Assembly (NCBI RefSeq): GCF_037042905.1
Contig: NC_087251.1
Span: 25,112,001-25,176,000 of the forward strand
Direction: 5' to 3'
Length of the DNA: 64,000 nt
Origin: Lytechinus pictus
Taxonomy: Eukaryota
The notes beneath the pieces were generated by a model. That model worked only from the letters and a program-made list of their open reading frames with translations, did no database searches and was not told the origin of the DNA. The position numbers were made by a program, and so were the translations under genes. Of the stretch, positions 43,926 to 46,514 are shown one piece after another. Every line of letters begins with the position of its first letter. Position 1 is the first letter of the stretch.

Positions 43926-44736
43926 GCCAAAAGTGTCTCACCAAAAGTAAGAAATAATCTCAAAGTGCCGTCACAGATGCCGATCAAGACCCCCTAGAAA
44001 ACCAATCAGGTGTGACGAAGATCGCCGAGAGCGTGAAACCGACGGTTGTCGACCGAGGTGACCAAGGTATGAATAAGTTTTTGTCCTATTTATTTTTACT
44101 GGCTATATATTATATATATACTTGTAAATTCGAAGGTGTTTTACCAAACATTGAGGCCTTAAAATTGTTTGTTAAATACAGAAAGATTTGGAATTCTCTT
44201 GGTAAAAAAAAAAATTTAGCTTTCCATCCACTTCAAAAATGGAAATTTGAGGTGTAACCCTGATATCTATAAATGTGCTTATAGTTCGATATTTTTCTTC
44301 GATTTTCAAGTCTTTTGAACCCATACGTGTACAGCAAATAGCAACTGTACAATGATATGCTGTTAGTGTGTTTGCCTTGTATTATTTTGTTTGCTAAGCT
44401 TTATTTTGGTTAATATTGCTTTTTGTCACAATAACTGATCAGTCCTAATAAGTTGTAAATACTGTAATTTTACCTTGATTATGACTTTATGACTTAATAA
44501 AACATACAAATATTAAAAAAATATTGCTCTGCCCTGGTATTGACCCATTGAGCACTCTTAGAAACCTCAACCTATCACATACCAAGTATAACATATATAT
44601 GTACCACACATGCCCCTCCCTATAATCAAAAGTGGAATTAACGTATCTTTAATTCCATTTTTTTAATAGAGAAAATAATAATTCAAGCGCTTACCTCGTA
44701 TATATTTCATCCATTGTCGTCTTTATCAACATGTCT

Positions 44737-44783
44737 CTATCCATGTTGTGCTAGCTCGCTGAATTTATTTTCAAGTTTATTAA
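44737..44783 (-). CDS. Secreted precursor exon 2 coding part: VNKLENKFSELAQHG*
   Basis: Pyrimidine-rich acceptor ending ...ttctgatctag, in the phase that matches exon 1; TAG at 44737-44739. The exon continues to a donor GAG/GTAAGC after 44695. Confidence 0.7.
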
Positions 44784-45101
44784 CTAGATCAGAAAAAAGG
44801 TTAGGCTATAGATTAATTCCCATACAAAATTAACAGTTGGAAAATGTTAAATGTTGGCTCTTGCTGCATTAGGCCTATATAGAGAGTATTTGTCGTTTTA
44901 AATATTAGTATGGCAACATTTCCCCCATCGTGACAAATACTTGTGTATGAATATGTAACGAAAATAATCGTAGAAAATGTTACATGTAATATAATTTTCA
45001 CCATTAAAAAGGTTCGAAGTAAGGATTGTAGGTGATCTATCATCTTCACAATAAGAAATTTTCATAACCGCCATGATTAAATTAACATCACATCATCTCA
45101 C

Positions 45102-46344
45102 CTGCTTTTTTTAGGTATTCGTGTAATATTTTTTTAGGGGTACGGCCATTCTCATCAACACTTTCATCTGGAGGAAGAGGGGGTAGGTCTGCCTCATCGA
45201 CGCTTTCATCTGAAGGAAGAGGGGGTAGGTCTGCCTCATCGACGCTTTCATCTGGAGGAAGAGGTGGTAGGTCCGCCTCATCGAATCTTTCATCTGGAGG
45301 AAGAGGAGGTAGGTCTGCCTCATCGACGCTTTCATCTGGAGGAAGAGGAGGTAGGTCCGCCTCATCGACGTTTTCATCTGGATGAAGAGGAGGTAGGTCT
45401 GCCTCATCGACGCTTTCATCTGGAGGAAGAGGGGGTAGGTCTACCTCATCGACGCTTTCATCTGGAGGAAGAGGGGGTAGGTCTGCCTCATCGAATCTTT
45501 CATCTGGAGGAAGAGGAGGTAGGTCCGCCTCATCGACGCTTTCATCTGGAGGAAGAGGAGGTAGGTCCGCCTCATCGACGCTTTCATCTGGAGGAAGAGG
45601 GGGTAGGTCTACCTCATCGACGCTTTCATCTGGAGGAAGAGGAGGTAGGTCTGCCTCATCGACGCTTTCATCTGGAGGAAGAGGGGGTAGGTCTGCCTCA
45701 TCGAATCTTTCATCTGGAGGAAGAGGAGGTAGGTCCGCCTCATCGACGCTTTCATATGGAGGAAGAGGAGGTAGGTCCGCCTCATCGACGCTTTCATCTG
45801 GAGGAAGAGGGGGTAGGTCTACCTCATCGACGCTTTCATCTGGAGGAAGAGGAGGTAGGTCTGCCTCATCGACGCTTTCATCTGGAGGAAGAGGAGGTAG
45901 GTCTGTCTCATCGACGCTTTCATCTTGAGGAAGAGGGGGTAGGTCTACCTCATCGACGCTTTCATCTGGAGGAAGAGGGGGTAGGTCGGCCTCATCGACG
46001 CTTTCATCTGGAGGAAGAGGGGGTAGGTCTGCCTCATCGACGCTTTCATCTGGAGGAAGAGGTGGTAGGTCTGCCTCATCGACGCTTTCATCTGGAGGAA
46101 GAGGGGGTAGGTCTGCCTCATCGACGCTTTCATCTGGAGGAAGAGGGGATAGGTCTGCCTCATCGACGCTTTCATCTTGAGGAAGAGGAGGTAGGTCTGC
46201 CTCATCGACGCTTTCATCTTGAGGAAGAGGAGGTAGGTCTGCCTCATTGACGCTTTCATCTGGAGGAAGAGGGGGTAGGTCAGCGGAACACTGCATAACT
46301 ACCAGGACCACCAGGAACACCTTAACCATGGTAACGCTCTTCAT
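45102..46344 (-). CDS. Secreted precursor exon 1: signal peptide + 27 x DLPPLPPDESVDEA + GRTPKKILHEYLKKA
   Basis: ORF 45088..46344. Hydrophobic N-terminus MKSVTMVKVFLVVLVVMQCSA with small residues at -3/-1 (C-S-A). Strong donor GCAG/GTGAGA after 45102 (phase 1). TATA box about 75 nt upstream. Confidence 0.85.
45148..46281 (-). repeat. Coding minisatellite, 27 x 42 bp
   Basis: Unit (+ strand) gcctcatcgacgctttcatctggaggaagagg(g/a)ggtaggtct. No indels; the variant tcgaatcttt recurs at 45281, 45491 and 45701. Confidence 0.98.
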
Positions 46345-46417
46345 GATTGCAAAAGATCAGACTCTTTCGATCTCAGATTTCAGGTGCTCGAGTACGATGA
46401 TGATGTAAATGAAGCAT

Positions 46418-46514
46418 TATTTATAGAGGTTTCTCAGACGTTCTCTTTGCACTGAATTTCCCAAAAGAGTAAAGTATGATATAAGATTTAAGACCATCTG
46501 GTGTTTACTTATCT
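46418..46514 (-). promoter_or_regulatory. Candidate core promoter of the repeat precursor: TATA box, kappaB-like site, GATA site
   Basis: On the minus strand: TATAAATA at 46425-46418, GGGAAATTC at 46462-46454, AGATAAG at 46514-46508. Confidence 0.5.

Follow-up and report, generated by a model that had tools for sequence, protein, structure and literature searches.

A single-copy orphan gene of Lytechinus pictus encodes a predicted secreted protein in which an acidic repeat array precedes a possibly amidated amphipathic helix

Centrocins and strongylocins are the only dedicated precursor families of sea-urchin defence peptides named in the accessible text of two surveys (PMC4805251, PMC10608444), the second of which gives anionic propieces of 15–30 residues. 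In the available part of PMC4805251, the centrocins of S. droebachiensis and E. esculentus are described as precursors of 119–121 aa in which a 20-aa signal and a 30-aa pro-region are followed by a heavy chain, a 24-aa interchain, a light chain and Gly-Arg, with signal and pro sequences 58–67% alike between species. The heavy chain is a basic peptide of about 30 residues with a brominated Trp near its N-terminus and at most one acidic residue, and it is disulfide-joined to the light chain through one Cys in each; the peptides begin at Gly or Trp after the pro-region (EeCentrocin 1 at Gly), EeCentrocin light chains are amidated from the C-terminal Gly-Arg, and EeCentrocin 2 carries a C-terminal His-amide whose amidation derives from Gly (PMC4805251). 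From the tooth of S. purpuratus comes phosphodontin, which has a signal, 35 acidic repeats of 11–12 aa each with a phosphorylatable Ser, a C-terminal motif and a pI of 3.9 (PMC2830187); the Pro/Ala-rich tooth proteins contain acidic blocks rich in Gly, and four of the five also carry Kazal domains (PMC2614417).

Here we analysed a 64,000-nt stretch of L. pictus DNA (the window, meaning the whole stretch), whose minus strand carries a repeat-containing reading frame next to an asparaginase gene. The anatomy (Table 1) is that of an actual gene for a predicted secreted protein, an orphan and apparently undescribed. We read it, with a probability of roughly 45%, as a precursor with a tandem-expanded 14-residue acidic propiece, likely releasing an amidated membrane-active helix, likely a defence peptide.

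Table 1 Features of the locus and of its neighbour, in window coordinates.
Feature	Position	Strand	Basis and remarks
TATA box	46420..46425	(-)	sequence; ~80 nt 5' of start codon
Predicted signal peptide, residues 1–21	46282..46344	(-)	by rule
27 x 42-nt repeats, 14-aa acidic Pro-rich unit, residues 22–399, net -130	45148..46281	(-)	sequence
15 nt absent from X5 contig	45134..45148	(-)	one contig, depth 8, 42 and 121 flanking letters
Exon 1 end: linker 400–403 and first half of helix, 404–414, phase-1 donor	45102..45147	(-)	sequence and X5 contig
Intron 1, 318 nt, GT..AG	44784..45101	(-)	X5 contig, one of the four contig runs aligned
Exon 2, 89 nt: second half of helix, terminal Gly, TAG 44737–44739, then 42 nt untranslated	44695..44783	(-)	sequence and X5 contig
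Intron 2, ~4.5 kb, largely dispersed repeats	40194..44694	(-)	read/contig alignments
Exon 3, non-coding	40136..40193	(-)	5' end from an exact match of 30 letters; 3' end tentative
Neighbour: isoaspartyl peptidase/L-asparaginase (ASRGL1-like) coding exons	32461..37644	(-)	same strand, start codon 37644, 2.5 kb below exon 3

The unspliced ORF (46344–45088, minus strand) encodes 418 aa ending in GEMM, and the 45102–44783 join put forward in the initial annotation turns it into a 429-aa protein ending in Gly-stop; both statements hold in the sequence. The frame is open for 1243 nt with no indel, the start codon has an A at -3, and residues 1–21 comprise a basic n-region, a 9-residue core with a mean hydropathy of 3.7 and C-S-A before repeat 1, so that, by hydropathy and the -3/-1 rule, the 21-aa signal peptide annotated there is retained as a prediction. 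From the continuous ORF, the TATA box at 46425 and the A at -3 we infer that this signal belongs to the same transcript as the array and the tail. A unique 15-residue stretch separates the array end from the phase-1 donor at 45102, and among the 21 AG sites scanned below this donor the acceptor at 44783 has the most pyrimidines (14 of 18).

Five of 24 listed sequencing runs were aligned to the locus, four as contigs (X5, X1, X2 and X9) and one as raw reads (X12); eleven of the 24 contain 4–7% of the locus words, and none of these eleven is recorded as RNA. One X5 contig, with a depth of 8, joins 45102 to 44783 by skipping 318 nt bounded by GT..AG on the minus strand, with 89 and 74 letters on either side of the junction. 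Since it spans the two sites with these borders and no substitutions, we take the predicted splice to be real, its support being this single contig. The organism label of X5 differs, and the X5 sequence is thus an allele or comes from a very close species. The 15-nt loss in the same contig is in frame and removes five residues, including the Arg ahead of the tail, while both Lys-Lys pairs, the six Lys and residues 404–429 are kept. Beyond the stop, the contig leaves exon 2 after 42 nt, at 44695, and continues with 30 letters that match 40164–40193 exactly, the exon 3 start at 40193 sitting behind a good acceptor; about 250 further letters follow the matched 30. Exon 3 has a donor after 40136 and, if unspliced there, polyA signals at 39858, 39538 and 39514.

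In the raw-read run X12, of which about a quarter was read, depth on these exons is zero, so expression is at least sample-specific. Runs X1, X2 and X9, from three studies, hold repeat-unit contigs at 45151–45195, with a summed depth of up to 400 in X9; none of their contigs lies on the tail or on exon 2, an absence without evidential weight given possible record filtering, and the pattern could stem from filtered-out records, from DNA runs or from alleles that end differently. Within intron 2, several dispersed repeats at 41430–43250 are abundant in transcript data. Read in frame, the 42 untranslated nt of exon 2 (44695–44736, minus strand) give an Arg, an acidic stretch like the end of the last repeat unit and a second stop, and they may be the leftover of a longer multi-peptide frame. 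We did not retain an ancestral frame running beyond the stop, as chance alone would place one or more additional stops in the next 14 codons with P = 0.59.

By copy number the 42-bp array (45151–46281) amounts to 26.9 copies with 94% matches, and its coding frame is exactly 27 x 42 nt, free of indels and stops; the other two minus-strand frames over it contain 4 and 55 stops. Every unit has 4–5 Asp/Glu and 3–4 Pro, in agreement with the 27 acidic, Pro-containing 14-aa repeats first described here, and 23 of the 27 contain a Ser followed at +2 and +3 by acidic residues. The array makes up 88% of the protein, starts exactly at the predicted signal cut and stops four residues short of the helix. 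That the units are 94% alike points to a recent expansion. A double change of Ser-Val to Arg-Phe occurs in units 14, 19 and 24, a five-unit spacing that reads as a record of block duplications; the Arg-Phe units also place three single Arg sites inside the array. Among the repeat variants, 4 of 15 distinct changes are silent and 11 are replacements, against 31 silent of 126 possible (p = 0.52), and the unit substitutions include D>Y, D>N, S>R and S>N, by which acidic residues or Ser are lost. On these small numbers no purifying selection is visible in the repeat sequence, and a lack of excess silent changes is what would be expected of a spacer. As the array fills all the space between signal and tail, a one-unit ancestor would match an ordinary linear peptide precursor in size and layout. 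Such an ancestor would have had about 65 residues, with a signal, a 14-residue anionic piece, a 29-residue basic tail and Gly; our searches found no short relative.

The 27-residue tail contains six Lys, three Glu and two His (net +3), with the hydrophobic residues at the positions initially listed; it has no Trp, and there is no Cys after residue 21. Its hydrophobic moment is 0.43 (0.43–0.46 overall; shuffle p = 0.0075) at a mean hydrophobicity of 0.19, the hydrophobic face is formed by L407, L411, A414, V415, L418, F422 and L425, and the pattern continues across the splice from exon 1 into exon 2. When the same exon-1 end was joined at random, 27 of 1201 open joins were equally amphipathic and Pro-free, and 39 of the 883 random joins stopping at 20–35 aa ended in Gly; these two tests, chosen post hoc after inspection of the sequence, together suggest that the helix and the terminal Gly were selected. 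Moment, shuffle, random joins and the spliced form therefore support the amphipathic helix with Gly-stop of the initial annotation, and its other terms fared less evenly. Side-chain charge depends on the cut, being +4 from residue 400, +3 from 402, +1 from 406 (first Lys-Lys) and 0 from 414 (second), so that the word cationic is weakened, most of all after Lys-Lys cuts. The proposed cut between Gly-Arg and Thr-Pro finds no support in X5, the only transcript contig seen, in which the Arg is absent and the Lys-Lys pairs are kept. Neutralisation by the propiece suits one unit and not 27, since -130 stands against +3. A suspected likeness to CRH- or secretin-type helices was set aside by eye, on mismatched residue spacing.

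The repeat unit has 27 matches in the 812-Mb genome, every one at this locus. When the signal, the part of the tail in exon 1 and exon 2 were used as queries in DNA, protein and degenerate-pattern searches of the same genome, this locus alone came back, and no paralogue lies within 100 kb on either side; the gene is single-copy. Protein collections were searched with the unspliced ORF, the 15 residues of exon 2 being in no database query. Residues 375–418 gave two candidates among proteins of 229–732 aa, none at E <= 10, and among proteins of 30–228 aa three of 8000 scored candidates reached 9–14% cover at E 3.6e-4 to 7.3, none a homologue. A search of 1.84 billion representatives yielded 163 matches at E <= 0.001; the best 150 of the 163 show 14–53% identity with their best stretches in repeats, and their top local scores, 40/156 against the tail and 33/115 against the signal, are at noise level. 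Metagenome contigs gave 322 pattern matches with none confirmed, Pfam no family for three pieces of the unspliced ORF, the PDB three matches (E 0.44–0.87) of which none was accepted as a homologue, and an exact-sequence look-up did not retrieve the protein. Neither a description of the protein nor any of four of its peptide motifs was present in the openly available article texts searched, and the L. variegatus peptide tables of PMC4857251, in their accessible portion, contain no piece of it. Orphan status is supported across protein collections, metagenome contigs, Pfam, the PDB and the animal's own genome.

Several features of linear amidated amphipathic precursors are found here, namely a signal by rule, anionic residues 22–399 (-130) and a helix pattern with Gly. 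Compared with the available account of the centrocins (PMC4805251), this is likewise a predicted secreted sea-urchin precursor with a signal, an anionic pro-region, a basic chain of about 30 residues and a predicted Gly amide donor, and residues 400–428 (pI 9.9, 24% Lys/Arg) come near the pI of 10.04 and the 23–29% positive residues given there for sea-urchin peptides. Unlike the centrocins, it has a single 30-residue tail and then the stop, its helix contains three Glu and its pro-region spans 378 aa, and no sequence match was found; as the protein has no Cys after residue 21, no Trp and neither interchain nor light chain, a kinship with centrocins was rejected on these three counts of Cys, Trp and chain arrangement. 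Strongylocins need six Cys in three disulfides and were rejected because the mature part here has no Cys. Prepromelittin, the dermaseptins and Hydra arminin share a layout of signal, acidic propiece, C-terminal amphipathic helix and Gly amide donor; the present propiece differs from theirs in being more than ten times longer and a near-perfect tandem array. Melittin-type propieces are made of X-Pro/X-Ala dipeptides, and stepwise trimming of this kind does not fit, as three of seven dipeptides per unit end in Pro or Ala. At +3, the tail is far less cationic than Hydra arminin 1a-C, amidated and with a charge of +13 in the accessible text of PMC6217004.

With phosphodontin, as presented in the available part of PMC2830187, the protein has in common a signal followed by dozens of short near-identical acidic repeats, Ser in an acidic context and predicted disorder. 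Its unit is unrelated (Pro-rich, no Gly), and in place of a C-terminal motif rich in Asp it carries a basic amphipathic helix ending in Gly; neither homology to phosphodontin nor an Asp-rich C-terminus was found, and, judged by sequence, the resemblance is one of layout only. The Pro/Ala-rich tooth proteins (PMC2614417) differ from it by their Gly-rich acidic blocks and by the Kazal domains that four of the five contain.

If the protein is an amidated helix precursor, the signal would be removed after residue 21 and the acidic, disordered spacer would keep the tail soluble and inactive in a granule until a protease cuts near the array end, with no requirement for the Arg. The cut could fall directly behind the final acidic residues, much as centrocins begin at Gly or Trp behind their pro-region, or else at the first Lys-Lys. 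A terminal Gly is the established amidation donor of PAM, which would turn it into an amide; no basic site would be needed for this step because the Gly is the last residue. The resulting helix of 23–29 residues would bind membranes. With its charge of -5, a single unit would be enough to offset a tail of +3 to +4, and the remaining 26 have the look of recent growth under weak constraint, which may be excess or may have found a second use. This precursor reading is supported by the real splice, the helix across it, the Gly-stop, the array bounded by signal cut and helix, and an X5 deletion that spares the six Lys and the entire helix. Against it count the lack of a relative in which conservation of the tail or of the Gly could be tested, the three Glu, the missing Trp, the mean hydrophobicity of 0.19 and a charge of +3 falling to +1 or 0, as well as the 88% of the protein that would be thrown away. 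Defence peptides often occur in families and this gene is single-copy; the Arg site is absent from the sole transcript seen, and a single contig carries the splice between exons 1 and 2. Should exon 3 be spliced onward, the stop would sit 100 nt ahead of a junction, an arrangement that would invite nonsense-mediated decay.

The main and strongest rival, which we regard as possible though rather unlikely, is that the protein stays intact as a secreted, disordered, very acidic polyanion with a mass of about 44 kDa and a role in calcium binding or in shaping a matrix of mineral, adhesive or mucus, working like phosphodontin, its C-terminal helix serving oligomerisation or as a membrane anchor. 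It fits the bulk of the sequence equally well: phosphodontin is a precedent, Ser in an acidic setting recurs through 23 of 27 units, the array that dominates the protein has kept its frame, L411, V415, L418, F422 and L425 follow a 4-3-4-3 heptad spacing, and an X5 allele without the Arg site and with the helix is what would be expected if no cut were needed. Speaking against an intact matrix protein are the lack of a sequence match to any such protein, a terminal Gly-stop that goes unexplained (39/883 by chance) and unit substitutions that cost acidic residues or Ser with no purifying selection seen, on small numbers. A neuropeptide or hormone-like precursor, from which Lys-Lys cuts would release a 15- or 23-residue amidated peptide behind the acidic spacer, appears improbable. 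Neuropeptides are usually conserved, and here neither the unspliced ORF nor its pieces match Pfam and no homologue was found in other echinoderms; moreover, a single uninterrupted amphipathic helix runs through the second Lys-Lys. What commends a neuropeptide is that the two alleles alike retain the Gly and the two Lys-Lys pairs, that the 15-mer has a net charge of 0, and that echinoderm neuropeptide precursors commonly have acidic spacers ahead of their dibasic sites (PMC4772807).

We consider it quite improbable that the gene is of recent origin or in decay, or that it forms the 5' portion of a transcript reading through into the asparaginase gene, making little functional protein and carrying the array as a minisatellite in a spacer of no further importance. 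Its orphan, single-copy state, neutral-looking repeat variation and in-frame deletion allele would suit such a gene, as would the onward splice to exon 3, which lies 2.5 kb above the start of the asparaginase, and the zero X12 depth on the exons; a TATA box, a good start context, a clean signal, 1243 open nt, a splice that completes the helix and the Gly are unlikely to have come together without past selection. The neighbouring gene matches isoaspartyl peptidase/L-asparaginase-like proteins of Lytechinus pictus and L. variegatus, and a very remote prospect is that exon 1 is also spliced directly to its first coding exon, which would place a long acidic leader on a secreted asparaginase. Of six AG sites above the start, one (37682) would keep the enzyme in the frame of exon 1, and the splice to exon 3 already brings the transcript within 2.5 kb of the enzyme. 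To find one open frame among six sites is nevertheless close to chance expectation, the L. variegatus model reads the 37682 site through as exon, no read or contig in the five aligned runs has such a junction, and the six asparaginases among 161 candidates of 145–2000 aa measure 295–363 aa with no leader in any.

As for the surroundings, exon 3 (40136–40193) and the asparaginase region 37434–37762 (minus strand) are possibly one shared or read-through unit, and the L. variegatus asparaginase model extends the N-terminus above the start codon in a different frame. Exon-like stretches at 14485–14805 and about 20400–20500 (minus strand) resemble what we take, from their motifs, to be ArfGAP with PH domains; 14485–14805 has no Pfam match. 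On the plus strand, two overlapping ORFs of 178 and 113 aa occupy 55596–56253, the 178-aa one having no Pfam match, and a stop-free frame of 2065 codons is found at G000:C7, about 25079927, 32 kb before the window.

Going further than the amidated helix precursor itself, an unlikely but more specific proposal is that the tail is an undescribed echinoid amidated membrane-active peptide with no kinship to centrocins and strongylocins, with a propiece lately expanded 27-fold, and that the gene yields a defence or pedicellarial-venom peptide together with a free polyanion that has a job of its own, in calcium binding, granule packing or self-protection. L. pictus pedicellarial venom contains protein toxins without assigned identities in the accessible text of PMC12193733, which makes a venom role possible; nothing here links the gene to pedicellariae. 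If this were true, the gene would offer a snapshot of a propiece becoming a phosphodontin-like matrix protein.

As a candidate absent from the searched protein collections, an orphan amidated helix would add a new candidate to the defence peptides of sea urchins. Whichever reading holds, the gene illustrates the growth of an acidic unit of 14 residues to a polyanion of 378, and such growth is one way in which acidic matrix proteins particular to a lineage could originate.
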